Of a stretch of DNA of 64,000 nt, positions 20,463-48,105 are shown piece after piece (position 1 is the stretch's first letter; every line of letters starts with the position of its first letter). Both the position numbers and the translations under genes were made by a program. The notes beneath the pieces were generated by a model, which was not told where the DNA came from, did no database searches, and saw only the letters and a program-made list of their open reading frames with translations. This DNA is from Deltaproteobacteria bacterium (GTDB lineage: Bacteria > Desulfobacterota > Desulfobaccia > Desulfobaccales > 0-14-0-80-60-11): NCBI GenBank assembly GCA_016875015.1, contig VGSJ01000005.1, positions 848-64,847 of the forward strand. The letters run 5' to 3'.

Positions 20463-20472
20463 TTGGATTGGC

Positions 20473-23816: not shown

Positions 23817-23876
23817 ATCAACCTCCGGGGGTATGCGTTTAATCTCTTTAATTTTTGGCGAAAACCAAAAACGGCA

Positions 23877-24803: not shown

Positions 24804-25050
24804 GATAGTTCTCGCTCTGCCGTTGGGGATATTTTGACTTCATTATAATTCCGGGCTAATTTTTGTCAAGGCGCTTTGCCGTATAACCTTCCTATTTCAT
24901 TGAATAAATCTTATAAACCGCCCCATCTCCCCTGAATTCCTCCTTGATTAATTTTTTCCTTTCTGGTAATAATATATCTCTATAGTTAGGTATCGTAGTG
25001 TTAACCCAGCGATGAGCTGGAAATCTTATCTGAGGCAAGGAGGTTTGGGC

Positions 25051-28743: not shown

Positions 28744-28831
28744 GCCTGGGTGGCGGAACGGGTAGACGCAAGGGACTTAAAATCCCTCGGGGTGTGACCC
28801 CGTGCCGGTTCGAGTCCGGCCCCAGGCACCA
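28744..28831 (+). tRNA. tRNA-Leu (anticodon TAA), integration target of the island
   Basis: 88 nt. Acceptor GCCTGGG/CCCAGGC, long variable arm, anticodon loop CTTAAAA (TAA at 28778-28780), T arm CCGGTTCGAGTCCGG, encoded CCA. Confidence 0.9.
28773..28831 (+). repeat. attL: 3' part of tRNA-Leu, direct repeat partner of 63371-63428
   Basis: GGACTTAAAATCCCTCGGGG(tgtga)CCCCGTGCCGGTTCGAGTCCGGCCCCAGGCACCA is identical to the right copy except for the variable-arm loop (tgtga versus ttcg). Confidence 0.85.
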
Positions 28832-28865
28832 ATAATATCAAGTAGTTATAATTATGGGATGATGA

Positions 28866-30464: not shown

Positions 30465-30516
30465 AAACACTCTCTGTAAGCAGGCTTACTGAATCAGTCT
30501 ACCTTTGGGCAAGTAC

Positions 30517-31200
30517 ATGGCGAAAGAGATAATAACTGAGGAATTATCGATAGTTGTGGTAGCTCGCAATCACAACCCCACCATTCTAAACCCTGATTTC
30601 CTCAAATATAATAAAATTGTTCCCACAGATTGGGAACTGGCTGGTAAGCCTATCTGTGCTGACCCGGTGGCCCAAGTAACCTTCAGCAACGGGGTCAACA
30701 TAGTCTCCCAATTTGATAAAGTTATTTTCTCTGAGGTTTTACGAGATAAGAAACCTGGAGACGTTGCCATTCCGGGGATCGCCCAAAAATATGTCGAGAC
30801 GCTCCCTCATGTAGATTACCGTGCCGTCGGTATAAATCCCAAAGGACATGTGGTTTTTACAGATGAGGCCGAGGTACAAAGATATATTGTTGATAATCTG
30901 CTAGCTCCCGGCCCTTGGCGGCAATTTGATGAGATATCCGTAAAGGCGGCCATTAAGTTTATTTATGCGCTCAAAGATTGCCAGCTTTCTCTCACCATCG
31001 AGGAAGGAAAACTCCAGGTTCAAGACAGTCTTTTACCGGTGGCGTTATTTGCCGCGAATTTTCACCATGACTTGGCTGGGGAATCCAAGGAAGAGAAATT
31101 AAAAAATCTGTCCAAGATACTCGATGAGTGGGAAAAAGACCTTAACTTATTCAGAGAAATGGTGAACGAGAGATTTCTTGGAATTTCGGGAAAACCATGA
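30517..31200 (+). CDS. Hypothetical protein A of the 3-gene cassette (beta-rich, apparent internal two-fold repeat)
   Basis: Track ORF 30505..31200 (TTG); ATG 30517 is the alternative used here. No motif recognised. The stop overlaps the next start (ATGA at 31197-31200). Confidence 0.6.
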   Translation: MAKEIITEELSIVVVARNHNPTILNPDFLKYNKIVPTDWELAGKPICADPVAQVTFSNGVNIVSQFDKVIFSEVLRDKKPGDVAIPGIAQKYVETLPHVDYRAVGINPKGHVVFTDEAEVQRYIVDNLLAPGPWRQFDEISVKAAIKFIYALKDCQLSLTIEEGKLQVQDSLLPVALFAANFHHDLAGESKEEKLKNLSKILDEWEKDLNLFREMVNERFLGISGKP

Positions 31201-31652
31201 ACAGCTCTAATCTTGCGGTAGACACCGGAACCCACGGCAACTATCTCGAACCCCTTGCCAGGGCCAAGGGCCAGGACGTCAGGAAGAACCCGGCCTACAG
31301 GAGTTCAAGGTATATCAGGTCCTCCTCTGCAAGTGGAGAGAGGCAGTGGCACATTTCCATCACCCATACTGACTCTTTATATGATGAAGCTTGCGGTCAA
31401 CCATACGTTCCGGAGACCCCGGAAAATATGTCGGCAAATGGGGAGACCACTGCGGAACTCACTACCGAAGATGCCTTCGCTCTCAGTTTGCAGCAATTCA
31501 TGCAGGGAAGTCACCTGGATGTGGAAGAAGATATTTGGGATATCGAGGTAAGGTTAATCCCGCCGCCTATGCCACAACGGCGTATCAAGGTCAAGTTCCG
31601 GTTCATCGGCAAGGAAACCCCGCGTATTTCATTCAACCCTGAACGAGACTGA
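31197..31652 (+). CDS. Hypothetical protein B of the 3-gene cassette
   Basis: 151 aa. S/R-rich N-terminal third, acidic middle, basic beta-like C-terminus (RRIKVKFRFIGKETPRISF). Translationally coupled to gene A. Confidence 0.55.
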   Translation: MNSSNLAVDTGTHGNYLEPLARAKGQDVRKNPAYRSSRYIRSSSASGERQWHISITHTDSLYDEACGQPYVPETPENMSANGETTAELTTEDAFALSLQQFMQGSHLDVEEDIWDIEVRLIPPPMPQRRIKVKFRFIGKETPRISFNPERD

Positions 31653-31659
31653 TGCTTTC

Positions 31660-32310
31660 ATGAGCCCGGGTGAATCTCCATTAATCTTGTCCGAATGGTA
31701 TGAACTGGTGTCTAGCGACCAGTTAATGCAGGGGGATATCTTTGAAGGCTGTCCGGTCTTCAGACCGCCGTCTGATCTGAAATGGCCCATTCAGGAGGAA
31801 AGTGAAGAGTTTGAATTTGCCTTGGGCACTCAAGATGTCATGGTCATGACCCAATCTTGCGATCTCCTGCCTGACCAGAAATCCGGTATGTGGCTGGTGA
31901 TCCTCTGTCCTATCTGGAAATTATCCGAAGCCTCCCGGGAAAACCAGATCTTAGCTTCAAGCTATGGCAAGGAAGAATGTCGCCGGGGGCATATGACCGG
32001 CTACCATATGATTGCCGGCTGCGAGCATGGTGATTGGAACCGAGAAATTTCCATCGTCAGTTTCCGTGAGGTTTGGAGCTTACCTTTGGATTTTGTCCGC
32101 CGTATGGCGGCCGCGTATGGACCGCGGCCCCGCCTGCGGCCCCCATATCGGGAGCATCTGGCTCAGGCCTTTGCGCGTTATTTCATGAGAGTCGGCCTAC
32201 CGGTGGATATCCCTGCCTTCAAGAGCAACAAAGCGGAGAGTGAGCTGCTAAAGAAACTCAACGCTCTGGATGCCGAGGCACGTCAGCGTCTTCTGTCGCA
32301 TTTCGCCTAA
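31660..32310 (+). CDS. Hypothetical protein C of the 3-gene cassette
   Basis: 216 aa, starting 7 nt after gene B. Notable motifs are LMQGDIFEGCPVF and DVMVMTQSCDLLPD. No family recognised. Confidence 0.6.
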   Translation: MSPGESPLILSEWYELVSSDQLMQGDIFEGCPVFRPPSDLKWPIQEESEEFEFALGTQDVMVMTQSCDLLPDQKSGMWLVILCPIWKLSEASRENQILASSYGKEECRRGHMTGYHMIAGCEHGDWNREISIVSFREVWSLPLDFVRRMAAAYGPRPRLRPPYREHLAQAFARYFMRVGLPVDIPAFKSNKAESELLKKLNALDAEARQRLLSHFA

Positions 32311-32599: not shown

Positions 32600-33160
32600 T
32601 CACACATCTTCATCGACCTCCACCTCATCAAGCAAGAGATTGTCTTCATCTACCACCTCCAAAGAAAAACCGGGCTTGCTAAGGTCCAGGCTGGCAATTT
32701 CTTCCGGAAACGGTTGAGCGTCGTCCACCATCCACAATTTGTCGAGGTAGTCCAAACAGGTGGCTTGCTTCCCAGGCCAGGCGCTCCAAATAAGGCTTGT
32801 GAATGAGTCCCCGCCCGTGGACTTCCGATAGAAATGACCCTTGCCCCCGATTTGGATGAATTGCTTGTCGATCTCGACGGTCCACCAGTGCCAGATCTCA
32901 TGCTCACCGAACCAACGCCTCGGGCCGTTGAGGCTGATATGAACCGTGACCTCCGCCTGAGTCACCTGCGGGATCTTGCTCAAGACATAAAGGGCTTTGG
33001 CCACAGAGACTAATTGGGCCGGGCGGGTGAATGGCGCATGCGTAATCTTACCCAGTAGTTGAATGGCCGCATCCACTATGTCCCGGTCGCTAGCAGAGAG
33101 GTAATAAGTATTCGAGAATTCGGAATCATTCCCTGACTCAGCGCCATTTTTGTCATTCAT
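32600..33160 (-). CDS. Hypothetical protein with a strongly acidic C-terminal tail
   Basis: Start ATG 33160 follows AGGAGG (MNDKNGAESGND...). The C-terminus is LEVVDEDNLLLDEVEVDEDV. It is the last gene downstream of the DISARM-like operon on the same strand. Confidence 0.6.
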   Translation of the reverse strand: MNDKNGAESGNDSEFSNTYYLSASDRDIVDAAIQLLGKITHAPFTRPAQLVSVAKALYVLSKIPQVTQAEVTVHISLNGPRRWFGEHEIWHWWTVEIDKQFIQIGGKGHFYRKSTGGDSFTSLIWSAWPGKQATCLDYLDKLWMVDDAQPFPEEIASLDLSKPGFSLEVVDEDNLLLDEVEVDEDV

Positions 33161-33318: not shown

Positions 33319-34305
33319 TTAAATTTTCTGGTTCTTCGATGGCACATCGAACTCAGCAAACGGTAATAACCACGTGGGACCTGCGGCTATTCTGATTCCA
33401 TCCGATTGGTAGCCAGCTTTATGGAAAGCGTCCGCCTCTTTGAGGCACAACTTCCTGGCATCGCCCCACTGTTCATGAGTTAGGGGCTCGAGAATGAGAG
33501 GATGAATGCCAACTTCAAGGTCAAGCTCCTTGATCGGCAGCAGAACCGCTTCATGGACCATCTTCTCAAAATATGGTGATTGGGAACGGAGGAGCTCGAG
33601 CACCGGCTGATAGTAGTGGCGCCACATGCCTTCATCGAGAGTCACTTCGATGGGGTGTTTTGGTTTATCTTTCGGCGGGTCTGGGTCTCTCCAGAAAAAT
33701 TGCAGGACGTCATTGCGAAAATAGGTGATGCAGCCAATATAAAAGCGGGGCGCCACTCCATTGACACTGACAACCCGTTGTGCCTGCTGCTTCGCTTTGG
33801 CTTTTGGGTCGTTACCCGGGATGCTTATGCGTCCTTTGGCTTCAAGCGCCACCCATTCCTGAGAGCTGGTTTCTGCAATTAGATCAGGACGAGAACGGCC
33901 TGTGAGGACCGGGTTAAGCTGAGGGCGAAATACGTCCAGGTGCATTGCCCACGGGGCATCGAGACATTTCCAGGAAAACAGTTTGCAGAGTACCATGCCG
34001 AGGAAGTAGTTTACGGCACCTTTCTCAGATGGATCGAGGGTTTTTGCCGCATCGGTCCGGCGCAGCCGGCGAGCAGTTTGACCACGTTGCTCCAGGGCCA
34101 TCCGCACCAGGGACCAGCGGAATAATGCTTCGTACATTGAAGCCGTACCATGCCTGAAAACATACTGGCGGTTAGGGCGTCCAACAGTCACGGCGGCCCA
34201 GAGCAACTCGTCCCAGCTTGTTGAGAGCACAGCATTGCCATTGGATACTGGACTGGCCGGAGGCGGATCGAACCCTTCAGACCGGTAATCAATTTCAATC
34301 GGCAT
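33319..34305 (-). CDS. Predicted PD-(D/E)xK nuclease-fold protein
   Basis: SRPDLIAETSSQEWVALEAKGR supplies a D...E-x-K arrangement, preceded by an acidic helix (DPSEKG). It overlaps the methylase gene end by 11 nt. Confidence 0.5.
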   Translation of the reverse strand: MPIEIDYRSEGFDPPPASPVSNGNAVLSTSWDELLWAAVTVGRPNRQYVFRHGTASMYEALFRWSLVRMALEQRGQTARRLRRTDAAKTLDPSEKGAVNYFLGMVLCKLFSWKCLDAPWAMHLDVFRPQLNPVLTGRSRPDLIAETSSQEWVALEAKGRISIPGNDPKAKAKQQAQRVVSVNGVAPRFYIGCITYFRNDVLQFFWRDPDPPKDKPKHPIEVTLDEGMWRHYYQPVLELLRSQSPYFEKMVHEAVLLPIKELDLEVGIHPLILEPLTHEQWGDARKLCLKEADAFHKAGYQSDGIRIAAGPTWLLPFAEFDVPSKNQKI

Positions 34306-37300
34306 CGCTTACCCCCTTTGGTGGGTGGATGTGGGGCGGCCAATCCGGCGGTTGGGGCTGACCGGGTTGCCATTCGGGAAGACCGCCTTCCGGTGGGCCG
34401 GGGGGCGGGTCGAGGCGGGTTTGGTAAGGCTGGCCGGTGCGGATGGCTGCGGCCATGGCGTCGTAGATTTCGAGGATGATGCGCTTGGTGCGGTAGTCGC
34501 CGTCGTACTTCTCCTCGTCCTTGCGGCGGACGATGGGGAAGGTGTCCATGATATAGGCCACTGCGTCCCGGGGGGTGGGGAAGTGGCCGGTGAGTTCGGC
34601 CATTTCCTCCGGGGTTTCGTCCCGCACCGCGCCTTCGGCCACTCGGGCGAGTTTCCATTGGCCGTCGGCGGTGGCCGGCAGGTAGAGGTGGAAAAAGGCG
34701 GCATCCAGCTCGCAGCGCAGCAGAAAGCGGCGTTCCTCTTCCCAGCGGAACGGCGGGCCCGACCAGCCGCAGTCCTGCGCGAAGGGCTCCAGGTCCCACG
34801 CAGTGTAAGTCAGTTCAATTGTTCTAAGCGTGAGCCATTCTATCAGTGAGATTCCGGATCCATTCCAGGGAATCTTGCTTTTGAGTAACGGAAACGCAGG
34901 AACCGGGATCTGTTTGATGATATAGAAATTGAGATTAATGCCTGACATCTTACTACGGAGCACATAGTCAAATGCGAATGAGTTTAGTACACCGCACAAG
35001 CCAAGGGATCTTTCTGCGAGGGGTAAAGAAATCATAAAGAGGCTATCACCAATTCCCACTTGTGGAACAATAGATGCCATCATGGTTCGGATATTGGCAA
35101 CCGTACCTCCGACTCGGCGATATGCCAAAACACCTCTGCATGCTGTCACAAGTTGTGGAATATTCGTACGGAGTACGCTATATCGACTCTCAGGCACGTA
35201 ACCTGCATCGGCATGTTGGGAAGCCGTGGTTTCCTCGGAGCCTCCTCTTAGCTTTTGTCCACCTCTTGCCTCAGTAGAAGACGCAAATCTATGATCGAAG
35301 TGATAGATCATTTTGCCCTCATAGAGCGGAACAAGGGCTGTTAAATAATGTTGGCCAGTTTCGAGTTCGCTGGCCCGCAATGCAGCGTTGTCGATGAACA
35401 GGTCAGAATCATTGGCCATATGAAACATGGTCATAAATGTCGGATTCCATCCCGATGAAATGTCGTCTACGTCTGACAGAAGAATGGGCAGACGCCGGTA
35501 TATGCCGATCACGAGTTCTGCATCTTTGAAGCTCCTAAAAAGTGGACATGTTCTTGTGTTTGGGTTCAAGAGTAATATGTCTTTTGTGCGAAGTTCAAAT
35601 GTGCGTCCCACAACTGAAACTTCGGCAACGTCCTGCAATCCACACGCAACCGTCGTACTCGAGGATTCGGATCCGCACGGTCGACCAATCGTCAGAAGAC
35701 AAAACTTCGTATTTCGGTCTACTGTTGGGAATAATCCCTTTGTGTTCTCAAAATCGAGAACTCGGCGAATCATCGTTTCTCTAACTAAGGACTGGAAAAA
35801 CGCTTTCGTCGTATCATCAGTTGCTATCCCGCTGGGCATTAAGCAACCAAGCCGCCCTGACAAAGAAATGCGCTTCCGCATCTGCTCAGCAAAAACCGCA
35901 AAAAGATTGATATCACCACGAGCACATAAAGGGAAGTCACCGCTATTTCTCAGGAAATGACTCTCCCCCTCGGCCTGTCTTTGGGCTAAGACAAATTCAC
36001 GGATGAGATGTGTATCTCGGCTTTTTAGTTCGCGAATCATCCGTTTCCGTTCGGCCGCGGTCTTGGCCGTAGCGATCTCCGGTTCTCGCTCGGCAAACCA
36101 CTCCTTCTCCTGGAGTTTTACGCGCTCCCACGGTGGATTACCCATCACACAGTCAAAGCCGCCTTTGGCGAACACCTCAGGAAAGGCCAGATGCCAATGG
36201 AAGAACTGATACTGGTGAATGAGGCGCTCGACTTCGGAAGTGAGTTCGGCTGGCAGCGGCCGTCCGGCAGCCAAGTCGTTCAGATAGCCCTGAGTGATAC
36301 CGCTGGTGCTGCTCTCCCGGCCCGGCTCACTGAAATGCTTTTTAATGACAAAGGCGGCGCACCAGGTGTCGTAGAGTTGCTTCTTGTGGCGGTACTCCTC
36401 AGTCTGTTCATGGCGCCGAAAGGCCAGCTCCCTGGCGCGGATGTTCTCGGGCCGATCATCGGGCATTTCCTCCAGGGCGGCTGCAGCATTTATTAAACGG
36501 TCTTGGGTTTCGGCGTCCTGCCGGGCAAAGAGCGGTCCCCACCCCTTGCGTTCGGCCTTATTGCGCTTCTTCAGCACCGCACAGGCCTTCTTGTCGTCGC
36601 CCTCGATGGGCTTGAAGGCATCATCGGGGAGGCCGGCGGCGATGATGTCGGGAGTGGCGCCCAGCAGGCTATTGCCGACGCGGATGTGATGGTCCAGAAA
36701 GGAAAGGGGCTTGCCGGGTTCCAAGGCTTCGAGCCATAAGTTCACCCGGCAGAGCTCGGCGGACATGGGGTTCAGATCCACGCCATAGAGGCATCGGCCG
36801 ATGACGTCCCGCAGGGCCTGCTGGTAGAGGAGCGGCGAGGGCTCGCTCTCGCCCTGGGCCAGGGCACGCACCCTGGCCAGATGCCGGGCTAACCGGTGCG
36901 CCGAGCCCACGAGGAAGTGGCCGGAGCCGACGGCGGGGTCGCAGACCTTGAGGGAACGGATAGCCTTCTCGGCTTCAGGTCCGGTCTTGCCCTTGATGGC
37001 TTCCTCCACCACGGGGTCCAGGGCAGAGTCCAGCAGACACTGCACCAGGGAGTCGGGGGTGTAATAGGAGCCGGAGGTTTTGCGCTCGCTGCCAGCGAAC
37101 TCTGCGAAGGTGAACCGGGCCCCGTCGGCACTGATTTGGGGGGTGAGGGCCAGCAGACTCTCATAGACACCCCCCAACTCCTCAGCGCCAAGGTTCTTGT
37201 AGTCCACCGGGCGCAGCACTTTTCCTTGTCGGGTGAAGGCCAGGTGGCGGAGAGCTTCCAGAAAATCGAAGTTGGTGAGCTCGGCATCGTTGAGAACGGC

Positions 37301-38479
37301 AGTAGAGTTCGGGTCCCAGAGAAAGCTGCCCAGAATCGGCAAGGCCAGATGCTCTCTGACAGCAGCGAAGTTGGCATCGCCAGACAGCGCCCCCACCAGG
37401 AGCTGGAACTGCCGCCAGAGGTCGCTGTGGCGGCTCCCCTTGATGTGGGAGGCCAGGTCACGGAGGCGCCCGGTGCTGTAATGGGCGGCATAGCGTTCCC
37501 GAGCGAGTCGGGCAGCCTCCGACCCATCCCGCGGGTGAAGCAAAGCCAGCCCCTCGATGGTGCGATCCTCGGCCACAAATAGGAAGATCAAGCGGTAGAC
37601 GACACGCAAGAGCTGGCCATGAAAATCCGTGAGCGAGGTTTCCCCGCTTCGCAACCTCTCGCGCAAGGCCAGGTTTTTCGAGTGGCTGGTGAAGCCTTCC
37701 CCCAAAATGCGCAAAGCCTGTTCCACCCCTTGGCGCAGATCGCCCAGGGCGCGAGTACCTTGTTCCTCGGCGAGCTTGGTCCACTGCTCCAGCCAGCAGG
37801 TCTCCGGGCGGTCGCCCTCCCGTGGAGCAAAGCGCGTGGCGTGGGCCATGAGCCAGAACAAAACGAAATCGGAATAGACCTCCCCACTGAACATGGCGGC
37901 CAGGTCGAACTCCAGGAAGGACTGACGGGAAAGAGCCTGATTATCGCGCAGGATGCGAAAGGTCAGGCCATTGGAGACGATGGCCCAGAGATGTCTGGGG
38001 CTGCGGTTCAAAAACTCCTGAACCAGACCGTGGGGATTGACCGCGGCGGCCCCGCGCACTCCTGCGGCCTTGCGGTCGAGGCTCAGACCACAGCCGAGTA
38101 GGTGCACCGGTACGGGACCAAAGAAGCGGCTGATGGCATAGGTGCGACCGCCGATTTCGGGGCCGGCAGTGGTGGGGAGCATACCGAAGGCCAACTCGCG
38201 CAGCAGGGGGAGATTCCACTTGTCATTGGTGAGGCCGGTCCCCACTTCACCCTCGGAAAGGCTGGCAGATGTGGCCTGGAACTCTGCCCAGTGTTTACGA
38301 AGACGATTCCATGACTGGGTGATGACCTCGTTCAGGCGCTCACCTGGCGGCAAGCCGTAATCTTCGGGCCCCGTGCCGGGTAGCTTTTCTTTGGGGTCAA
38401 GCACATGCCGGAGCAGATCGGGCGGCAGGAGTCCCCCTTCGGAGCGGATGGTCTGGAACTCATTGCTTCGACGGGCCAT
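34295..38479 (-). CDS. drmMI: Very large N6-adenine DNA methyltransferase (Eco57I/PglX/DrmMI-like)
   Basis: 1394 aa. SAM-binding motif [14 protein letters not shown] and catalytic motif [11 protein letters not shown] (NPPW). It starts 2 nt after the SNF2 gene stop. Confidence 0.75.
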
Positions 38480-38481
38480 GG

Positions 38482-41310
38482 TTACGTCAACCTCGGCAAC
38501 AGAACGTAAGCCCCCAAGATGTCTACGGGGAGCACGGGCTGGATGGTGACACGGCCCTTGAGGCGAGCTGACTCGCGGACGCGCTCATGGGCTGCGAGCT
38601 GAACGGTGGAACGTTCGGTGGCGACGACTTCGAGAGCCTGTTGCATTTTCGGCAGGGCTGGGAGCAAGAGGCTGAGTTGCTGGTCGACGGCGGTTCGAAC
38701 GAGGTTGCGCTCGGGCCTGGCCTGAAGAAGACGCTCACCTTCTTCCGGCGTGAGCCATTGTGGTGCGTCAGCAGGACCGGAGCAGGCGAGGGGAATGATC
38801 TCCTCGCAAAGGATGGGTTCGCCGGCGGTCTGCAGATGGTAGCGTAAGCGTACCACCAACAGCATGGTACGGGTGCTCACGGCGGAGGTGGAAATGACCC
38901 CACAGCGAGCAGCCACAGCCAGAGTGTCCCGGGCCACCGGATCAAGGGCTTGGTCGAGGGTCCAACTGGCAAGGCCCTCGACCACTGGGCCGGTGCGGCC
39001 AAGATAGATCTCACCCTTTCCCAGCGGCAAATCAAAACGGCCCGTGAAGGAGTCATCGAGGCCAATGGCCTGTCGTAAGGAGCGGGGCACTTCGTTACTG
39101 AGGTGAACGGCGATGGCTTTCCCCTTGGCTTGCACCGGGATGTTGGCCGCTTGAATTACGGTGTGGAAGAACCTGGCCACGTCTTCATTGCGGCCGATGG
39201 CGGCGCGAACGCTTTGGAGTTCTGCGGCTACGGCTTCGGGACTCAAGGTGTGCTGGGCGAACCGGGAGCGACTGGCTTTTTCACGGTCGCGGGCATTATC
39301 CCACTCGGCGTGAAGGGTCTGTTTCTTGGTCTCGAAGAGGTCGTCGAGGAAGGAAAGCTGTTGGAAGCGCTTGCCGGTCTTTTCCCGAAAGAGTGCCCCC
39401 TCGAACAACGCCTCGGCGATCTGCTCGCTGGACCCCGGTACCGCCACGGTTACACCAAGGTCGCTCTTGATAGTTTTGTGCTTGCGGATAAGGACATCGA
39501 GGATCACACCGTCGATGGGATTATCTATGCCATAGTATGTGATGACGCGGACCTCGGGCTTTTCCTGCCCAAAGCGATCAATCCGGCCTTCCCGCTGCTC
39601 GTGGCGTGTGGGGTTCCAGGCCAAATCATAATGCAGCACGGCATTGAAGTGCGTCTGGAGGTTTACCCCCTCCGCCAGACAGTCGGTACAGACGAGCACA
39701 TATTGACCCGGATCGGCAACCAGGGCCTCGATTCTTGCTTCGCGCTCAGCATGAGGCAGCAACCCAGTCACCGATTCGACTCTGACTTTGGCAGGCAAGG
39801 CCTCGCGGAAGTGCCGGGCTACATAATCGGCGGTATCCACGAACCGGCAAAAAACGATGGGTGAAAAGCCATCCTTCAGCAGCCCCTTGATCTCATGAAT
39901 GGCTCCCTGCAGCTTGTGATCCGCTTCGGGAGAGAGGGCTTCGGCTCTCCGGGCAAACTCCAACATTTTCCGACGCGTGCCATCAGCTCCGGCTTCTGAG
40001 TCCGAGCCAGGGCTGAAATCAAGGGCAACCACATCATCGGTGTCGTCCTGGTCAAGCACCGTGCGCCTACCCACTTCGTCCACTTCATTGTCAGGGGCCT
40101 CATCCACGGCAGCCCGGCTCCGAAGTGTTGCAGCGGCCGCTGCCGGGCTGGAGGAAACACAGCGCATCAATGCCAACGCCGACCAGTAACGCACCCGGCG
40201 CCGACGTTGGCTGGTATCGCTTTCCGAAACGAACTCCCGAGCGAAGGCGAGAATGTCATCGAAGAGGGAGCGATATTCGTTGCTAAAGCTGTAAGTTGGC
40301 TCAGGGATCTTGTCGTACCGCTTGGGGAAAGACGTATCCGTCTGAAGGTAGTGTTTAATGTCACCACGACGACGCTGCACTAAATGTTTTGCCAGCTTGC
40401 GGCGAATTTCTTCCCTTCCGGCCCGGTCAAGGTCCATGGGCAGGCTTGCAAACTCTTCATCAAGTAAGCTGAGAAGAGAACGAAATGCCTCTTCGTTGCC
40501 GCTGTGGGGCGTGGCGGTGACCAGGACCAGATGCCGTGATTTGTTCTTGGCGACACGCCGCAGCAAATCAAAACGCTGCTGGCGTCCTCGTCCAACACCA
40601 CCGGCCAAGGTACAGCCATGGGCCTCATCCACAATAACAAACTCGGGACATTTCAGGATGAAGTCCTCAGCCCGGCGTGGGGTCTTGATAAAGTCGGTGG
40701 AGACGATGGTAAAGCGGTGGCGGTCAAAGACCGAAACGCCGATCGGCAGGTCGCGCTCCAGTCGTTGGATGGTACTGCTCAGAACCAACTCGGCCTCGAC
40801 ATGGAACTTCTCGGTCAGCTCACGTTGCCATTGCTCGGCCAAATGAGGTGGGCAAAGTACTGTCATCCGCTTGATTTCGCCACGGTCAAGGAGCTCGCGG
40901 GCCAACATTGCGGCCTCAATGGTTTTGCCTATGCCTACATCGTCGGCGATCAAAAGGCGCACGGGGTCGAGTTTAAGCCCCATCATGAGCGGCACGAGCT
41001 GATAGGGCCGGGGCTCAGCAGCTATGCGGCCGAAGCTCCGGAAAGGACCAGCGGCTGCACGAGTAGATAAACGCGCTGCCTCGCGCAAGAGCTGGCCTGA
41101 GGTAAAGTCCCCGAGGTCAGCCTGAGTGGGCATTTTGAAAGTCGCTGACGCGACAGGCTCAACAGCAGGTAGGATGCCAGTGGTCTCTTCGTCGAGTCCC
41201 CCTAAGGGTCGCACAATGAGGAGGTCATCCGAAGAGTCGGGTAGCACTAACCATTCGCGGCCACGCGCATGTATGAGGGTGCCGGGTTTAGAAAGGGGGG
41301 CAGTGCTCAT
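38482..41310 (-). CDS. drmD: SNF2-family helicase (DrmD-like)
   Basis: 942 aa. DDVGIGKTIEAAML (motif I), VIVDEAHGC (DEAH), AWNPTRHEQREGRIDRFGQ (motif VI). Its start overlaps the upstream helicase gene by 4 nt. Confidence 0.8.
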   Translation of the reverse strand: MSTAPLSKPGTLIHARGREWLVLPDSSDDLLIVRPLGGLDEETTGILPAVEPVASATFKMPTQADLGDFTSGQLLREAARLSTRAAAGPFRSFGRIAAEPRPYQLVPLMMGLKLDPVRLLIADDVGIGKTIEAAMLARELLDRGEIKRMTVLCPPHLAEQWQRELTEKFHVEAELVLSSTIQRLERDLPIGVSVFDRHRFTIVSTDFIKTPRRAEDFILKCPEFVIVDEAHGCTLAGGVGRGRQQRFDLLRRVAKNKSRHLVLVTATPHSGNEEAFRSLLSLLDEEFASLPMDLDRAGREEIRRKLAKHLVQRRRGDIKHYLQTDTSFPKRYDKIPEPTYSFSNEYRSLFDDILAFAREFVSESDTSQRRRRVRYWSALALMRCVSSSPAAAAATLRSRAAVDEAPDNEVDEVGRRTVLDQDDTDDVVALDFSPGSDSEAGADGTRRKMLEFARRAEALSPEADHKLQGAIHEIKGLLKDGFSPIVFCRFVDTADYVARHFREALPAKVRVESVTGLLPHAEREARIEALVADPGQYVLVCTDCLAEGVNLQTHFNAVLHYDLAWNPTRHEQREGRIDRFGQEKPEVRVITYYGIDNPIDGVILDVLIRKHKTIKSDLGVTVAVPGSSEQIAEALFEGALFREKTGKRFQQLSFLDDLFETKKQTLHAEWDNARDREKASRSRFAQHTLSPEAVAAELQSVRAAIGRNEDVARFFHTVIQAANIPVQAKGKAIAVHLSNEVPRSLRQAIGLDDSFTGRFDLPLGKGEIYLGRTGPVVEGLASWTLDQALDPVARDTLAVAARCGVISTSAVSTRTMLLVVRLRYHLQTAGEPILCEEIIPLACSGPADAPQWLTPEEGERLLQARPERNLVRTAVDQQLSLLLPALPKMQQALEVVATERSTVQLAAHERVRESARLKGRVTIQPVLPVDILGAYVLLPRLT

Positions 41311-44300
41311 TTAACTGGCCTCCCGAAGATGTCAGGATGGCGGAGGAAGATCTCGATCCAGTTTGCCATGTGGTGGAAGCGGATAACGATGTACCCCATC
41401 TCCATCAACCTCTGTGTAATGGTCTCGTCCTCGCGGAGTTGGGCCGGCTCATCATGCGGCGGTCCGTCGATATAGATGGCGGCAGCATGTTCACGATAGA
41501 AGAAGTCGGGACGGGTGGCGCAGGATTCGATCAGATACTGAGCCTCACTCGGAGGTCGGAGCACGAGGTCGTCCAAGAGGTCAAGCCAGCGCTTCTCTAA
41601 CTGACTGTCGCACCGCTTGCGTAGCGCGGCCATTCTTTCGGTACGGGAGCCAGCACCGCCCGCAGGGCGGCATACAGAGGAAGCCAGGTCGACTAACAAG
41701 TTGCGAATGAGATGGCGGTCGAGGTCTTTATGATCCGGCTGGTTGCCGTAATCGAGAAGGCACTCATAACACCCCTTGCCGCAGGTCTGTATGGCTTTGT
41801 CTTCCAGCGTATGGGGGTCAAAGTGACAGATATCCAAAGCAGCCCGGGCCAGCAGCGGCAACACGGTGGGGTCTTCAGCAATTTGGCGCAGTACGCCGGC
41901 GCCGCCTTCGGATGCCTCATAAAAGAGAATTTCCCGACGGTCTTGGGGTGAAGGCATCGGTTCGCACGAGAGTTCCCGAGGCTCAAGCTGGAAATGCTTT
42001 TGGATGGCCTCCTTGAACGCGGCCTGCAGGCTCGCCATCTCCGGACCCGAACGGGGTGGTTCGAATTGCATCACCAGAGCGTTCTTGGTGTCCCTTACAT
42101 AAGGCACCACGCGCTGGATCCGCCCTTGGGCGGTGGCATCGTCAGAGTCCTCTTCGTCTGCCTGGTTGCGCGACCAATAGCCCCTTTCCAGATCAAGATT
42201 GAACCCGGGAGGCTGATTGCCCCTCTGATTGGCCCAACCAAGGTTGATGCGGTAGAGGTCAGTGGCGTCGCCGTAGCTGAGGCGCAAAGCAAGGTCATCG
42301 CCGCAGTACACTTCCGCGTCTTTGCGGTCCAGCATACCACCGATTTCCGGGAATCGATAGGAAGTGACGAGTTTGTAGCCGAACCGCTGCCTTTCCTCTT
42401 CATCGCAGGTAATACGCTGGGCAAGTTTGAGGCTGACATTCTGCAAATGAACCAGATTATCGATTGTAGCAGATCCGTCCAGGGCATCGCCGCAGCGGTC
42501 GCAAATCTCGGTGAGGTTGGTTCCCTGCTCTAAATGGGCATAACCACATTTTAGGCAACGCTTCATCGTGGCGGTCACCAAATCGTGGGTCGCTTCGATG
42601 TCGTCAGTCCCGAAGTCGAGATTGACTTTGTAAACCCGGTAACGGGCTCCTTCGTGGTAGATCAAGGCGCGGGGGCCAAACTCGGAGATCGCCAGGAAAC
42701 GGGGGCGGGAGACGAACTCATCGCGGCTCTTACGTTGGCGGCGACCAGGTACATAAGCTGAAAGGGGCAGGCGCGGAAAATTATAACCTGGCAGAAACCC
42801 CTCAGCCGCGAAATAGCGGTAGGAATAGAAGTCGCCTTCATACATACCCTCGGCTTCGGTAAGCAAGCGGATCTGGCTCTCCGCCTGGGCGCGCAAGCGC
42901 CTGGACTGATTGCGCTCGCCCTCTGGTCGTGCATGGTCGCCGATGATCCTGTGATGCAACTCTCGCTGGCGGAGGGCAGCACGATAGAGGCTACGCCAGC
43001 GTTCGCAAGAATCATCAAAAGAACGCTCAATCTGGTCGAGGATTTCTTGGGTCCAGTTTTCGTGAAACCAAGCTGCTGATGACAGTTCGTTGAGGATACT
43101 GCTGACAAGTTGGTTGGCTTTGGAAAGCGCCCCAGCGCGGTGAGTCGGATTCCTTAGTTCCCGGGCAATTGTGTCTTTGACGGGGAGCGGAAGCCTTCCA
43201 TTGGAATGGGTGAGGTCAAGCACCGTGGCAAGTGTTTTACCCAGGTCCGGCTTGGCTACTTCCATCCAGACGGCGTGGACATGGGAGCGCACCAGATCCC
43301 GGTTGCGGATATCGATACGCGGCGGGGCCACCGAACCCGCAACCATATGGTTCGGCTGGCGAAAATAATACTGATCGTGAGGGCTGCGGCCAGCGCAATA
43401 GGTGTAGACCAGGGCCGGCTGGCCACCACGTCCGGCCCGCCCGCTCCTCTGGGCATAATTGGCCGGCGTCGGGGGGACGTTGCGCAGATTGACGAGGTTT
43501 AATTGGGCGATATCCACTCCCAATTCCATCGTCGGTGAGCAGAAAAGGAGGGGCAAATCGCCATTGCGAAAGCGTTCTTCGCGCTCTTCCCGGTCTTCAG
43601 ATGCCACCTGGGCAGTATGTTCACGGGCTTCGAGGACGCATTTCAAATCAACGAAACTGCGGTAACATTCCACGAAATAGTGGTTGACCTCTTGTGGAAT
43701 CTCTCCCGCATCCAGGAGCCGGGTCCGGTCTAACGGGCGGGCAGCACCCTCTCCAGGCAACCAGCGCAGGGCGTCAGGATTGATCTGGTAACCGGGCACT
43801 TCACCACTGCGTACCTGTTCGACAACCCCATAGCGTTTAAGAGCGAGAAATAGAAAACGGATGGCTCGATCAACATCATCGCGGCCCAAGCTCTGCCCCA
43901 GGGGTACGTGGGGGGCCAGTGATCGTTTTAGATAGCGCCCATATCCGCCGTAGGATGAAATAAAGAGCCCGATACGATCTTCTTGTCTCCGGGGCCTGGG
44001 ATAAGCGACAACGGACTTTACAAGCTCACGCGCATCCTCAAGATACCACACGGTATCTTCAAGGAGTCGCGGTTTAGTTTGCTCGACCAAGTCGAGCTGC
44101 CGCTGAGGGTCAAGGACATCGACCTTAACAGCCAGAGATCGGCGTAGAACATCTAGAAGGGTCCGGAGTAGTTCCTCACGTACTTCCGTAGGACAGGATC
44201 GCAACGTTGCGGGTACCTCAACGAACTCTTCGGTTTCTCGGTTGAATCGAACTGAGAATCCGGCTTCCCAAAGCTCGGTCTCGGCAAGTAGCCCATCCTC

Positions 44301-46562
44301 TCCTCTCAAACCATCATAGTCGAAGACAAGCAGACCGCAATCTTCAAGATTCGGCGCGGTCACGCGCCAACCACGCTGCAAGTCGCGATAGAGGTAGTAA
44401 TCGATGACGCGGCGAAGGGCATCATTAGTGGCGTGCTTCGCCGGGCCGCGCACCTCGGGATCGGCAGCGTATTCGTCGAACCGAAGCTCCATGGCTTCGA
44501 AGACACTGCGCGATAGATCGCCATGGACCAATCCCCGCGGACCTTTATTCCGGGCTGCTTTATAAAGTGCCGAACGCAAAAGGGACACTTGAGCAAAATC
44601 GTTGAAGTGGCCGGCCTGCAATGAAGCGTCCTGCCGGTTGTCAGTAAAACTTAGGAGCTTGCGAGCCTCAGGGGTGAGGTCACGGTCGCCTTGCAGCTCG
44701 ATGAGCGACCGGACTGCCATGATCGTAGTGGCGGTGCTGCGGTTGTCGACACCAAGGGTTGCCAATTTCGGGCGCTCGGAGCGCTGGGTCTTGGTGTAAG
44801 CGACCCCGCATGAGGGATGGAGACAAAACAGAAAGTTCCGGCGGATCAGCGCTGCTGGGATGCCATGCTCTTGGGACATTAAATGGCCCCGGGTGTCGAT
44901 AAAAACAGGCTCGGGGAGATCACGGCGGGCATCAGGTCGTATACGTTCCTCGCCTTGCGGTGTGGTCTCCTTCATAAACGCAGGCAAGCGCTCCAGCACT
45001 TCTGGACCATCAAGCAGTGGCCATGGTGCGGATTCGGACACATAGAGGTATGCATCGCCGCTGCCGTCATCACCTTCCTCACGGCGGTCCTCTCTGGGTA
45101 ACAGGGCTGTGCCGTGCTCATCGGTGACCGCCCTCACGCGGTAGTAGGCAGTACCGCATTGCCGGCAAAAAACTAGGGGGAATAGGGGCTTGTGGGGCTC
45201 ACCGGGTTTGGCGACCTTCTTAGACATCTCGAGGTGACGTTCAGCCTCGGGCTCAATGGTTGCCCACACCGTGTCGCCGCGGGTAAAGAATTGATGGAGG
45301 CGAAACGCAAAGATGGGGAAACGGCTGGACTCGCTTCGACGCAGTTCACACCCCTTGAGCAGAAAACGGCGCAGCACCGCGGCGCAACGTGCTTGGTCAG
45401 TTGAAGTAATCTGCTCAAGTTCCTCCGCGGCACTACCCTCACCCTGTAAGCGCCGGGGTTCCTGACGGACCAGTCCTCCGGTATCCGCTTCAGCCCGTAC
45501 GCCGAAGGTGGATTCAATCCAGGAAGCCAACGGATGGGTACGGAAAACATCATAGCTATCCGGTGGAGGTGCACCTGTGTCGACGGTGTCGAAAAGTTTT
45601 TGGATAACCAGTTTGTCACCAAAATCCATTTCTGGTGTAGCACGCTCGAGAGTTTCTTCGACAACTTGAGAGGTATCGAATGGGATGCCAAATAGTGTCT
45701 GGGCGACCTTCGCCACCTCGGCTTTTTGTTCTTCGGAGGATCCTCCGCTGACCATCGTGGCTGATGTGCCGATGCAAATGATGTTGTGGCCGCCGAAGGC
45801 TAGACGACAGCGCCGGATCAGAAGAGCGACATCCGCTCCCTGGCGTCCCCGGTAGGTGTGGAGTTCATCAAAAACAAGGAAACGCAATCCCTGGGCAGAC
45901 CGGACCAACTCCCGATCCTCTCTGCGGGTGAGCAGCAACTCTAGCATCATATAGTTGGTGAGTAGGATGTCAGGTGGATTACTGCGGATCGCCTCCCGCT
46001 CGGCACCCTTTTCTTGCCCGGTATAACGGGCAAAGCTGACGGGGGGCTTTCCTTCCGGGTACCCCTTCTCAAGAAACTTTTTGAGTTCTTCATCCTGGCT
46101 GTTGGCCAGGGCGTTCATCGGATAAACAACGATAGCCTGGATGCCCTGACCCGACCCATTCCGTAGAACGTGGTCAACGATAGGAACGATATAGGTCAGG
46201 CTCTTCCCCGACCCCGTGCCGCTGGTAAGCACATAGGACTTGCCTACTTTTGCCTTGAGGATCGCCTCCCGCTGATGGGTGTGGAGCAGGAGCTGCTTTC
46301 CGGTGTGGTCGGTATCGGATTTGTCGATCCTAAAAATCCTGGCGCACTCGGTATGAAGCGTACCTTCGGCCACCATTTCATCGATCGTGCCTCCAGGCAG
46401 GAAGGTAGGATTGAGTTGAAGGAGAGGCTCTGGCCAAAACGCTCCTGCATCCAGATTTAGGTTCACCATGTCCGAAATACGGGGGTCGGCGATTTTGATG
46501 AAGCTACGCGTGTAATTTGCGTAGTCGCCAACAAGACGATCCCGGAGATCGAAAACGTTCAT
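41307..46562 (-). CDS. 1751-aa DExH helicase with DUF1998/MrfA-type Cys clusters and a C-terminal DUF559/Vsr-like endonuclease-fold domain (fused DrmA+DrmB-like)
   Basis: LTSGTGSGKSL (Walker A), LVFDELHTYRG (DExH), YAQRSGRAGRGGQ (motif VI). Cys clusters CLKCGYAH..CDRCGD and CGKGCYECLLDYGNQ. C-terminus RPDFFYREHAAAIYIDGPPHDEPAQLREDETITQRLMEMGYIVIRFHH. Confidence 0.75.
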   Translation of the reverse strand: MNVFDLRDRLVGDYANYTRSFIKIADPRISDMVNLNLDAGAFWPEPLLQLNPTFLPGGTIDEMVAEGTLHTECARIFRIDKSDTDHTGKQLLLHTHQREAILKAKVGKSYVLTSGTGSGKSLTYIVPIVDHVLRNGSGQGIQAIVVYPMNALANSQDEELKKFLEKGYPEGKPPVSFARYTGQEKGAEREAIRSNPPDILLTNYMMLELLLTRREDRELVRSAQGLRFLVFDELHTYRGRQGADVALLIRRCRLAFGGHNIICIGTSATMVSGGSSEEQKAEVAKVAQTLFGIPFDTSQVVEETLERATPEMDFGDKLVIQKLFDTVDTGAPPPDSYDVFRTHPLASWIESTFGVRAEADTGGLVRQEPRRLQGEGSAAEELEQITSTDQARCAAVLRRFLLKGCELRRSESSRFPIFAFRLHQFFTRGDTVWATIEPEAERHLEMSKKVAKPGEPHKPLFPLVFCRQCGTAYYRVRAVTDEHGTALLPREDRREEGDDGSGDAYLYVSESAPWPLLDGPEVLERLPAFMKETTPQGEERIRPDARRDLPEPVFIDTRGHLMSQEHGIPAALIRRNFLFCLHPSCGVAYTKTQRSERPKLATLGVDNRSTATTIMAVRSLIELQGDRDLTPEARKLLSFTDNRQDASLQAGHFNDFAQVSLLRSALYKAARNKGPRGLVHGDLSRSVFEAMELRFDEYAADPEVRGPAKHATNDALRRVIDYYLYRDLQRGWRVTAPNLEDCGLLVFDYDGLRGEDGLLAETELWEAGFSVRFNRETEEFVEVPATLRSCPTEVREELLRTLLDVLRRSLAVKVDVLDPQRQLDLVEQTKPRLLEDTVWYLEDARELVKSVVAYPRPRRQEDRIGLFISSYGGYGRYLKRSLAPHVPLGQSLGRDDVDRAIRFLFLALKRYGVVEQVRSGEVPGYQINPDALRWLPGEGAARPLDRTRLLDAGEIPQEVNHYFVECYRSFVDLKCVLEAREHTAQVASEDREEREERFRNGDLPLLFCSPTMELGVDIAQLNLVNLRNVPPTPANYAQRSGRAGRGGQPALVYTYCAGRSPHDQYYFRQPNHMVAGSVAPPRIDIRNRDLVRSHVHAVWMEVAKPDLGKTLATVLDLTHSNGRLPLPVKDTIARELRNPTHRAGALSKANQLVSSILNELSSAAWFHENWTQEILDQIERSFDDSCERWRSLYRAALRQRELHHRIIGDHARPEGERNQSRRLRAQAESQIRLLTEAEGMYEGDFYSYRYFAAEGFLPGYNFPRLPLSAYVPGRRQRKSRDEFVSRPRFLAISEFGPRALIYHEGARYRVYKVNLDFGTDDIEATHDLVTATMKRCLKCGYAHLEQGTNLTEICDRCGDALDGSATIDNLVHLQNVSLKLAQRITCDEEERQRFGYKLVTSYRFPEIGGMLDRKDAEVYCGDDLALRLSYGDATDLYRINLGWANQRGNQPPGFNLDLERGYWSRNQADEEDSDDATAQGRIQRVVPYVRDTKNALVMQFEPPRSGPEMASLQAAFKEAIQKHFQLEPRELSCEPMPSPQDRREILFYEASEGGAGVLRQIAEDPTVLPLLARAALDICHFDPHTLEDKAIQTCGKGCYECLLDYGNQPDHKDLDRHLIRNLLVDLASSVCRPAGGAGSRTERMAALRKRCDSQLEKRWLDLLDDLVLRPPSEAQYLIESCATRPDFFYREHAAAIYIDGPPHDEPAQLREDETITQRLMEMGYIVIRFHHMANWIEIFLRHPDIFGRPVK

Positions 46563-46873
46563 AATTTTTCTCCAACGACCAATGCCAGGCTGACGCCCTT
46601 GGAGTCGGACTCTGCGAGGAACCGAAGTACCAGGATTTTCAATGAAAACTAACTTCTCACTTTAATTACAGCGCAGAATGTAAACCCGGCACTTATGCGG
46701 GGCAAGCACGCCGATCGCCTGCTATCACTAATGTGTCAGAACCAGGTCATCCTTCATGTCCTAATATTTCTCCATTTGGCATTATGCCATGGTTATGGAC
46801 ACATTGTCTAATCTGATTTGCCGTCAAACCAAAAGGACAAATAATCTCGTAAGTTTTTTGAGGGAAGCAAGGC

Positions 46874-46897
46874 AAAAAAGGGGGCCCGCAGGCCCCC
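46874..46897 (-). terminator. Rho-independent terminator after the zinc-ribbon genes, upstream of the DISARM-like operon
   Basis: On the minus strand GGGGGCC TGCG GGCCCCC is followed by TTTTTT (stems 46880-46886/46891-46897; A-run 46874-46879 on +). Confidence 0.65.
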
Positions 46898-46920
46898 TTC
46901 CGTCTGAGGTTTACCCTTGT

Positions 46921-47100
46921 CTAACAAGAGGTCTTGTTGATCAGGACCAAGCGGTAGTTGCCGCCCCTGTGGGGGTAGCAGTCCCTGCAATATGGGGTCT
47001 GCCCCGATGCGAAGGCCAGGCCCGTGTAGCTCTCCTTCGGCCAAGAGAGGCGCCGCCGGCATTGCGGGCACCGAAAACGATAAACCGGGATGCTTTTCAT
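46921..47100 (-). CDS. Small zinc-ribbon protein (59 aa), hypothetical
   Basis: MKSIPVYRFRCPQCRRRLSWPKESYTGLAFASGQTPYCRDCYPHRGG... (CPQC...CRDC). The ATG lies immediately after the stop of the upstream gene. Below the ORF-track cutoff. Confidence 0.5.
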   Translation of the reverse strand: MKSIPVYRFRCPQCRRRLSWPKESYTGLAFASGQTPYCRDCYPHRGGNYRLVLINKTSC

Positions 47101-47298
47101 TCACGCCTCCGGCCGCATCATGCCCCCGCACACCGGGCAGGTGATGGTCTCGCCCAGCCACTTGCCGGGGAAGTAGATATGATAATTCTCGCAGCGGTAC
47201 ATGATGGTGCAAACCATCAGTTTCTCCCGGGCTCTGGTGATGACGTCCGGGTTTTCCCTGGCAAACCTTTCGATGAGGTCTATATCATGCTGATACAC
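47101..47298 (-). CDS. Small zinc-ribbon protein (65 aa), hypothetical
   Basis: GTG start. The C-terminal half reads YRCENYHIYFPGKWLGETITCPVCGG. Confidence 0.5.
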   Translation of the reverse strand: MYQHDIDLIERFARENPDVITRAREKLMVCTIMYRCENYHIYFPGKWLGETITCPVCGGMMRPEA

Positions 47299-47370
47299 GG
47301 TCAGTATCTCCCTCTGGAGGTCTTAGTCTGGGTCACCCATGGTTTTCGGTTCCAGGTGGCCCTGCCCGAT

Positions 47371-48063
47371 TCATGCCGCCGCTAGGGCGCCCTGCCAATC
47401 ATTGCCTGCATTGTGCCGCCAGGTGTCCTCATAGCCGGGGCCTTCGCCGTTAACATGGGAAACGGTGAAACCGCGCAGACTGCTCTGGCTCTGGATGTAG
47501 GTAGCCATGAAACCGTAGGCTTTGAAGAACATGAACTTACGCTCCTGGTACTGGGGATGGCCGGAAAGCTCCAACAGCCGCATAACGCCCTGCTGGATCA
47601 GGTCCTCGGCCTCAATGTACCAGGGCATCCGATCCTTGAATTTGCGGTGATAGATGAAGCGCACCATCCGGTACGCCGCCTCGGCATCAAATTCGCTCAA
47701 TGAGGGACAGACCATCCGTTTATTGAAATCCACGATGAAATAGCCCCGGGCCAAGCTCGATTTGGCTACTTTCTGATTGCAGTTAAAGTGGACCATCACG
47801 CCTTCGATGGTGTTGATGTACTCGGGAATAGGGATGGTCTCCCGCTCCCTGCCCAGGTCCACTGGGCCGTCAACAAATCCCCGCTTCGGAGGGAGGCCCT
47901 TTTTCAGGTAATCAATGATGTAGTAGCCGCGCTTTTCGGCGGTAACGGCGGTCATGTAAGGGCAATTGGTGAGCCGCATAATGTCCTTGCGAGTCATCCC
48001 GGCCACCGGAATTACTTCGCATTCACGTTTGGGCCAGCCTACCATCCGGATTTCCGTTTTCAT
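47371..48063 (-). CDS. Hypothetical protein with a C-terminal sigma-70 region-2-like segment
   Basis: Start ATG 48063 follows GGAGGG. Internal repeat EKRGYYIIDY / LARGYFIVDF. AEDLIQQGVMRLLELSG...FFKAYGFMATYI resembles sigma-70 region 2 (weak, by eye). Confidence 0.4.
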   Translation of the reverse strand: MKTEIRMVGWPKRECEVIPVAGMTRKDIMRLTNCPYMTAVTAEKRGYYIIDYLKKGLPPKRGFVDGPVDLGRERETIPIPEYINTIEGVMVHFNCNQKVAKSSLARGYFIVDFNKRMVCPSLSEFDAEAAYRMVRFIYHRKFKDRMPWYIEAEDLIQQGVMRLLELSGHPQYQERKFMFFKAYGFMATYIQSQSSLRGFTVSHVNGEGPGYEDTWRHNAGNDWQGALAAA

Positions 48064-48105
48064 TGTTGCACCCTCCATAGTAAGGAATGTTTTTTACTAT
48101 GAAAG

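Follow-up and report, generated by a model that had tools for sequence, protein, structure and literature searches.

Gene content of the operon

The window analyzed here is a stretch of 64,000 nt of contig VGSJ01000005.1 from a Deltaproteobacteria metagenome-assembled genome (MAG), and all positions given below are counted from its first nucleotide. An open reading frame (ORF) check of the window revealed an operon of four closely packed genes on the minus strand (33319-46562), the first three of which, armC, armA, and armB, were assigned with a probability of about 0.85 to Type I of the 'disARM-related Antiviral Defense Array' (ARMADA; Bell et al. 2025, bioRxiv 10.1101/2025.09.15.676423 / PMC12458937), a predicted anti-phage system comprising a helicase-nuclease, an SNF2 translocase, and an adenine methylase in that order. 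The genes are real, and the operon is a predicted defence system and a member of a family already described, which is related to DISARM and Druantia.

The operon consists of armC (P1, MBM4300232.1; 41307-46562), encoding a 1751-aa YprA-family DExH helicase-nuclease; armA (P2, MBM4300231.1; 38482-41310), encoding a 942-aa SNF2/BrxHII/RapA-like helicase; armB (P3, MBM4300230.1; 34295-38479), encoding a 1394-aa PglX/DrmMI-like N6-adenine DNA methyltransferase; and the gene of P4 (MBM4300229.1; 33319-34305), a 328-aa accessory PD-(D/E)xK-like protein. The armC and armA genes overlap by 4 nt, armA and armB are separated by a gap of 2 nt, and 11 nt at the end of armB are shared with the P4 gene. These genes, with their lengths and junctions, are exactly those listed in the first-pass annotation of the window, which was made from the sequence alone, and their products had been deposited at NCBI as MBM4300229-232.

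A candidate operon promoter (46781-46810, minus strand) was located approximately 220 nt upstream of the armC start codon. It is composed of TAGACA, an 18-nt spacer, and TG-CATAAT, and thus matches the consensus at 10 of 12 positions in addition to the extended -10 TG, although functional proof is no part of such a match. At the other end, the P4 gene is followed on the same strand by the gene of a 186-aa protein, P5 (FJ121_01675; 32600-33160), whose true start is M36 of a 221-aa ORF. A weak terminator-like hairpin (33263-33244) lies between the two, and P5 may be transcribed separately from the operon.

Domain architecture of ArmC

The operon proteins were scanned against Pfam, PADLOC-DB v2, and NCBIfam with curated cutoffs. 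Pfam matches and motifs bore out the earlier reading of a DExH helicase with DUF1998, an SNF2 protein, and a methylase with an NPPW motif, whereas the PD-(D/E)xK character of P4 was recovered by motif. ArmC was found to contain a RecA1/DEAD domain (residues 96-270; 45753-46277; PF00270, E 2.3e-25), a RecA2/Helicase_C domain (residues 978-1047; 43422-43631; PF00271, E 1.6e-12), and an MZB (= DUF1998) zinc-binding domain (residues 1512-1602; 41757-42029; PF09369, E 6.5e-11, 43.2 bits against a cutoff of 24.2), all on the minus strand. The fusion of helicase and DUF1998 module in one polypeptide, as proposed in the first-pass annotation, was therefore confirmed by Pfam. The overall layout is RecA1, an insertion of approximately 700 aa with a Cys4 zinc module, RecA2, an OB-CON-DUF1998 region with one extra Cys4 cluster, and a Vsr/DUF559 end; the insertion itself gave no Pfam match.

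The Walker A motif GSGKS and the DELH motif are intact, and K120 and D232/E233/H235 were conserved in 100% of 65 full-length homologs. In the same homologs, invariant cysteines were found at C466/469/580/585 in the RecA1-RecA2 insertion and at C1594/C1598/C1601 in DUF1998, and exactly one invariant Cys4 cluster, C1336/1339/1354/1357, was found in the OB region between RecA2 and DUF1998. According to the defining study, the OB region of Type I ArmC holds just one additional zinc module, the RecA2 insertion holds a zinc-binding beta-barrel, and a Vsr-type nuclease, predicted to be active, forms the C-terminus (PMC12458937); the cysteine pattern observed here appears to fit this description.

The last approximately 135 residues of ArmC contain a match to DUF559, corresponding to a Vsr/DUF559-type PD-(D/E)xK nuclease domain (residues ~1644-1730; 41373-41633, minus strand; PF04480, 21.2 bits against a cutoff of 20.6). 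The nuclease signature P1685-D1686, D1699-G1700, and H1703 was kept in at least 80% of 68 ArmC homologs, several of which are named 'very-short-patch-repair endonuclease' by the Joint Genome Institute (JGI). Judged by its sequence, the domain is predicted to be an active nuclease, as expected for Type I. Together with P4, this domain accounts for the two restriction-endonuclease-fold modules that had been noticed previously. The reported lack of a PLD gene also held, as no PLDc match was obtained for the five proteins P1 to P5 and no HxK(x)4D motif was present in any frame segment of at least 100 aa in the 64-kb window.

ArmA and ArmB

ArmA contains an SNF2-related domain and Helicase_C according to Pfam, with the Walker A motif GIGKT and a DEAH motif. 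Among PADLOC models, it scored 159 bits against BrxHII (residues 100-880), 266 bits against DrmD, and 791 bits over its full length against PDLC02853, a model named 'DpdE'. Its scores against the NCBIfam models of DrmD (293 bits) and DpdE (181 bits) were below the respective cutoffs of 610 and 500. PDLC02853 appears to represent ARMADA ArmA proteins, and automated annotation would therefore mislabel this system.

ArmB matched Eco57I and N6_Mtase in Pfam, as well as PglX and DrmMI. Its best PADLOC match, DrmMI (201 bits), was confined to the catalytic region (residues 462-785), which includes the catalytic NPPW motif (residues 781-784; 36128-36139, minus strand). The equivalent asparagine is needed for defence in ARMADA II of Escherichia coli (PMC12458937). 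ArmB is the most divergent of the three core proteins: its identity to close relatives was 0.7-0.9 at residues 1-650 and 0.2-0.45 at residues ~800-1300. The hypervariable C-terminal half is presumed to be a target-recognition domain, because an exchangeable domain of this kind would produce such a pattern. This variability parallels that of E. coli ARMADA II, in which armB is the variable gene (second 2025 preprint).

Assignment to ARMADA Type I

ARMADA Type I is defined by a YprA homolog followed by a BrxHII/RapA-like helicase and then by a PglX-like methyltransferase (PMC12458937), and precisely this order, a YprA-like helicase, a BrxHII/RapA-like SNF2 helicase, and a PglX-like methyltransferase, was found in the operon. 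A homolog search with P1 returned more than 8000 proteins. Four full-length homologs, MCL4502400.1 (P0008, 85% identity), MBU0966247.1 (P0056, 80%), MBZ5554573.1 (P0112, 78%), and MBL8199863.1 (P0119, 78%), are all labelled 'ARMADA Type I helicase' in Table S1 of the defining study (PMC12458937); judged by these listed homologs, P1 would be expected to fall among the ARMADA Type I helicases in the YprA tree. No ArmD-like (RelE-GajB-like UvrD) helicase was detected in or beside the operon by Pfam and PADLOC scans and motif scans of the operon and neighbouring ORFs, and P4 and P5 contained no helicase motifs.

The core gene order was compared among 80 genome loci from many phyla, obtained by a scan centred on the SNF2 gene with one genome per species. 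The homologs of armC, armA, and armB were collinear wherever the contig was long enough. The region downstream of armB, on the other hand, is a highly variable slot in the 80 loci. In actinobacterial loci (L052-L085), a McrB-like GTPase of approximately 700-750 aa directly followed armB on the same strand in about 20 loci, and a McrC-like nuclease of approximately 390 aa followed armB on the same strand in 11 loci; armB and the McrB/McrC-like genes form an apparent superoperon in these Actinomycetota. A UvrD-like helicase of approximately 640-730 aa was located downstream of armB in six loci, directly adjoining it in three (L045, L048, and L083) and approximately 3.4 kb further on, past the McrB/McrC-like pair, in the other three (L066, L068, and L072). 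Other occupants of the slot were SIR2-HerA, OLD-like ATPases, and NERD-UvrD proteins.

The assignment was made from orthology, gene order, domains, and motifs, and several points weigh against it. PADLOC v2 names the parts of the operon DruE3, 'DpdE', and DrmMI, not ARMADA. The experimental support for ARMADA comes from Type II only (PMC12458937). In addition, the BrxA-like and MarR-like domains that the ArmC insertion is predicted to hold are derived from orthology only.

The assignment to Type I nevertheless accounts for all of the operon except its end, as the two small accessory genes encoding P4 and P5 are the only parts that lie outside the published description. The first-pass annotation had named a full match to a catalogued subtype as a refutation of its reading, and such a match was found: the cluster corresponds gene for gene to ARMADA Type I (armC-armA-armB; PMC12458937).

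P4 and P5, two small genes at the armB end

P4 lies outside the ARMADA core as published. It appears to be translationally coupled to armB. No match was obtained for P4 in Pfam (even at E values up to 5), NCBIfam, or PADLOC, and its family comprises at least 928 proteins. In an alignment of 38 homologs, H122-L-D124, R137-S-R-P-D141, and E155-x-K157 were invariant; in P4 itself, the last of these reads E155-A-K157. The AlphaFold2 (AF2) model of P4 was confident (predicted local distance difference test score, pLDDT, 88.7). A Foldseek search of the model against the PDB returned nothing significant (best E 0.15), and a search with the P4 profile against PDB sequences gave no match. The BFVD viral library returned weak but consistent PD-(D/E)xK matches (best E 0.02), and the weak fold matches as a whole were mostly PD-(D/E)xK proteins, namely the AdnA nuclease domain, EcoO109I, the Cas4/RecB family, YqaJ, and VRR-NUC. 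Because of the invariant motif, the confident model, and these fold matches, P4 is probably a functional PD-(D/E)xK nuclease, spread as an accessory that favours the armB end without being confined to it.

The genomic context of P4 was evaluated in 63 informative loci, defined as those with at least 1.5 kb of upstream sequence. An ArmB-like methylase was located upstream of P4 on the same strand in 28 of them. ArmB was the commonest neighbour family (24 loci), and any other family adjoined P4 in at most eight loci. The remaining P4 homologs adjoin other methylases, a DUF1998 pair, large ATPases, or toxin-antitoxin genes. P4 thus looks like a mobile accessory that is absent from the description in the ARMADA paper, because about half of the family lies downstream of ArmB-like methylases, in some cases with the same overlap of 10-11 nt. 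Two distant relatives (27% identity) were found on plasmids, both annotated as hypothetical proteins in defence or toxin-antitoxin contexts, and no phage matches to P4 were present in the annotated records.

P5 is a second small gene that recurs near ARMADA and behaves similarly to P4. It had no match in Pfam (again at E values up to 5), NCBIfam, or PADLOC, and its AF2 model, although confident (pLDDT 87.5), had no meaningful fold match in the PDB. The P5 family consists of 34 proteins with an acidic tail, which occur as short forms and as long forms with an added zinc-ribbon-like CxxC...CxxC module. The P5 of the window was considered as a truncated long form, but no remnant of the C-terminal zinc module was found in the window, and truncation is unsupported because the short form exists elsewhere too. 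P5-like genes were found between an ArmB gene and a P4-like gene (L166; order ArmB, P5-like, P4-like), 236 nt upstream of armC (L168), and in an unrelated defence island (L170).

It is tentatively proposed that P4, and possibly P5, are undescribed and horizontally exchangeable accessories of ARMADA Type I that dock at the ArmB end in very divergent lineages. The distribution of P4 counts against this proposal: P4 was missing from 76 of the 80 ARMADA-I genome loci, and the four loci that carry it all belong to the closest subclade. P5 was found in none of the 80. As P4 is missing from most loci and about half of its homologs lie in other defence contexts, its functional link to ARMADA is tentative.

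A possible alternative is that P4 is an independent single-gene defence or nuclease cassette, outside the system, which landed in the variable region downstream of armB. Its presence in only four of the 80 loci would be expected in this case, and McrBC, SIR2-HerA, OLD-like, and NERD-UvrD genes land in the same slot elsewhere. Moreover, an ArmB-like gene is missing from the neighbourhood of about half of the P4 homologs whose upstream sequence is long enough, and in some loci an identity of only 31-44% for ArmC is accompanied by one of 49-69% for P4; this better conservation of P4 implies its independent mobility. An unrelated cassette is less easily reconciled with the positions that P4 takes relative to armB. 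The armB stop codon is overlapped by the P4 gene by 11 nt in the window and by 10 nt in L087 and L100, the distance is at most approximately 75 nt in about 10 further loci of divergent ARMADA lineages, and ArmB is by far the commonest neighbour. A simple Type II restriction-modification pair formed by P4 and ArmB was rejected, as half of the P4 homologs occur without ArmB and 95% of the ARMADA-I loci occur without P4.

Comparison with related defence systems

With published ARMADA Type I systems the cluster shares the three genes in the same order, the Vsr-type ArmC nuclease, the single extra Cys4 module in the OB region, a McrBC neighbour, and a location on a tRNA-integrated mobile element. 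It differs in the 328-aa gene that overlaps the end of armB and the 186-aa gene that follows, neither of which appears as a component in the text of the paper, and in its host, an uncultured Deltaproteobacteria MAG. ARMADA Type II (armABCD of E. coli NCTC 12900 / EDL933 OI-172) has homologous ArmA, ArmB, and ArmC proteins, in which the NPPW and Walker motifs are likewise intact; armB is likewise the most variable gene, and Type II also resides in tRNA-Leu/Phe satellite-like islands with other defence systems. However, the Type II order is armA-armB-armC-armD, with the RelE-GajB-like helicase ArmD that is missing here, and the OB region of Type II ArmC contains two zinc modules, inactivated EEP/Vsr domains often being present in addition. 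Direct, non-abortive protection by Type II has been shown by experiment.

In the first-pass annotation, the operon had been taken for a class 1 DISARM of non-canonical build, with a DrmA-DrmB fusion and with PD-(D/E)xK nucleases in place of the PLD nuclease DrmC. The part of this claim that stands is that the locus is a defence operon with overlapping gene content: like class 1 DISARM (Ofir et al. 2018), it encodes an SNF2 helicase (266-293 bits against DrmD), a large N6-adenine methylase (201 bits against DrmMI), a DExH helicase, and a DUF1998 module, and a methylation-linked discrimination of self and foreign DNA is presumed for both. ARMADA itself was named for its resemblance to DISARM (PMC12458937), and the second 2025 preprint portrays ArmC in the same terms as the first-pass annotation: a helicase resembling DrmA and a DUF1998 protein resembling DrmB are fused, and the nuclease is not a PLD. 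The scores of P1 point elsewhere. It reached 385 bits against DruE3 but at most 51 bits against DrmA in PADLOC, in agreement with the DruE-like relationship of the helicase that had been mentioned as a possibility, and in NCBIfam its DrmA score was 14 bits against a cutoff of 950; the DrmD score of P2 was 293 against 610. The SNF2 protein and the methylase appear, from their scores, to be homologs and not equivalogs of DrmD and DrmMI. In DISARM, furthermore, separate genes encode the helicase and the DUF1998 module, consistently so in its branch of the YprA helicases (PMC12458937), and the PLD nuclease DrmC is present, whereas the window contains no PLD; DrmA also carries an EVE-like domain, a trigger loop, and a jelly-roll N-terminus. 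The YprA helicases of DISARM and ARMADA belong to different major clades, and the published tree groups ARMADA with Druantia, outside the DISARM/Dpd clade (PMC12458937). A fused class 1 DISARM is accordingly improbable, and the cluster is not a new DISARM variant because it belongs to ARMADA Type I, which was catalogued in 2025.

A Druantia system, that is, a DruE-centred type III variant with an acquired SNF2 helicase and methylase, is more improbable still. The DruE3 models (385 and 297 bits) were the best PADLOC matches of P1, DruE is the protein to which ArmC is most similar (PMC12458937), and Druantia type III (DruH-DruE) shares with the cluster this helicase and its fused DUF1998 module. 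ArmC and DruE also share an insertion architecture of BrxA-like, zinc-barrel, and MarR-like elements (PMC12458937). However, the best DruE3 match spans only residues 38-674 of P1, the matches being limited to the N-terminal approximately 670 residues, and Druantia, like ARMADA Type II, has two zinc modules in the OB region (PMC12458937). The C-terminus of P1 is of the Vsr/DUF559 type, unlike the tandem PLD of type III-A DruE, and the SNF2 helicase and methylase are additional. DruH, DruA-D, DruF, DruG, and DruM are all absent, with no match of Dru models to neighbouring ORFs, and Table S1 places the close homologs of P1 under ARMADA Type I, not under Druantia.

A Dpd-like (7-deazaguanine) modification-restriction cluster, to which the full-length PDLC02853 match of P2 and weak DpdJ matches of P1 (47-65 bits, PADLOC) might point, is extremely improbable, because the former reflects the naming of that PADLOC model, the NCBIfam scores for DpdE (181 against 500) and DpdJ (62 against 800) were far below the cutoffs, the island ORFs that were scanned contained neither DpdA/TGT, DpdB, or DpdC nor queuosine-precursor genes, the modification enzyme is an N6-adenine methylase, and P1 retains the DUF1998 Cys cluster that canonical DpdJ has lost (PMC12458937).

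The integrative island and its surroundings

The operon is cargo on an integrative, satellite-like island of approximately 34.6 kb at a tRNA-Leu gene. The left boundary is attL (28773-28832, plus strand) in the 3' half of tRNA-Leu(TAA) (28744-28831), and the right boundary is attR (63371-63429, plus strand), a direct repeat of this 3' half. The repeat is 59 nt long, with 35 nt identical and 28 nt at 89%, and no chance matches of this kind were expected. ARAGORN called no tRNA at attR (63371-63429). The gene of the tyrosine integrase of the island (28866-30074, minus strand; Phage_integrase, E 4.6e-22) lies next to attL. This context agrees with the report that ARMADA is carried by satellite-like elements at tRNA-Leu/Phe (PMC12458937). 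A second repeat, 20 nt long and 95% identical, was found just inside each end of the island (28889-28908 and 63231-63250), and these inner repeats could be arm-type sites of the integrase.

A McrB-like AAA+ gene (48623-50233; AAA_5) and a McrC gene (50230-51606; McrBC, E 1.3e-40) on the plus strand constitute a neighbouring Type IV restriction system, divergent from armC; the association of McrBC with this cassette has already been reported (PMC11090510, PMC12458937). McrBC is followed, within 48623-54043 and likewise divergent from the operon, by the gene of an 814-aa GmrSD_N protein (Type IV, modification-dependent restriction), and directly after it by two tandem ADP-ribosylglycohydrolase genes (370 and 310 aa; 54119-56163), the products of which might reverse ADP-ribosylation. 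The right end of the island (57159-60960) encodes a helix-turn-helix (HTH) protein and an 846-aa CHC2-zinc-finger/Toprim primase, which suggest a P4-like or satellite-like replicating element rather than a passive island. Five ORFs of 150-235 aa, which had no Pfam or PADLOC match, flank the operon inside the island (30505-32310 and 46789-48078). To the left of the island, the GC content drops from approximately 0.63 to approximately 0.51-0.57 at positions 16000-25000, where a tRNA-Val gene is located (20473-20547), and this region may be another horizontally acquired segment.

Proposed mechanism

Domain content, orthology, core collinearity, intact catalytic motifs, and a hypervariable half of ArmB were observed for the operon; beyond these, we infer by analogy with ARMADA Type II, DISARM, and Druantia that the helicases and nuclease of the system would attack foreign DNA directly, guided by methylation. 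In E. coli ARMADA II, all genes, the Walker motifs of the helicases, and the NPPW motif of the methylase are required, and protection is direct and non-abortive (PMC12458937). DruE, the closest characterised relative of ArmC, binds single-stranded DNA and unwinds in the 3' to 5' direction, and the DISARM helicase DrmAB recognises double-stranded DNA bearing a 5' single-stranded overhang.

By analogy, ArmB would recognise a short motif via its variable domain and methylate host adenines, which would mark self or make ArmB the subunit that discriminates. ArmC would load on single-stranded or free-ended parts of unmodified invading DNA and move in the 3' to 5' direction, and ArmA would remodel the duplex or translocate on it. 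The Vsr-type nuclease of ArmC, and possibly the accessory nuclease P4, would then cut the foreign DNA, and the phage would be cleared directly without killing of the cell.

Significance

The architecture that was first taken as a non-canonical DISARM is ARMADA Type I, and since it was already catalogued in 2025, the cluster does not represent a new kind of system. The PADLOC-DB v2 labels (DruE3, 'DpdE', and DrmMI) mislead for such clusters. The window provides a compact, apparently intact example of Type I that could be used for testing Type I; its tRNA-Leu island is well delimited and also carries McrBC and GmrSD-like genes beside the operon.

The new element is modest. It comprises two small families at the armB end, outside Pfam, NCBIfam, and PADLOC, which recur beside ArmB-like methylases in divergent lineages and whose members may serve as accessory effectors or regulators. 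If they are indeed exchangeable accessories of the system, P4 could be a second effector nuclease or a methylation-sensing nuclease and P5 could be a regulator, and there would be a four- or five-gene subtype of ARMADA Type I, much as ArmD sets Type II apart.

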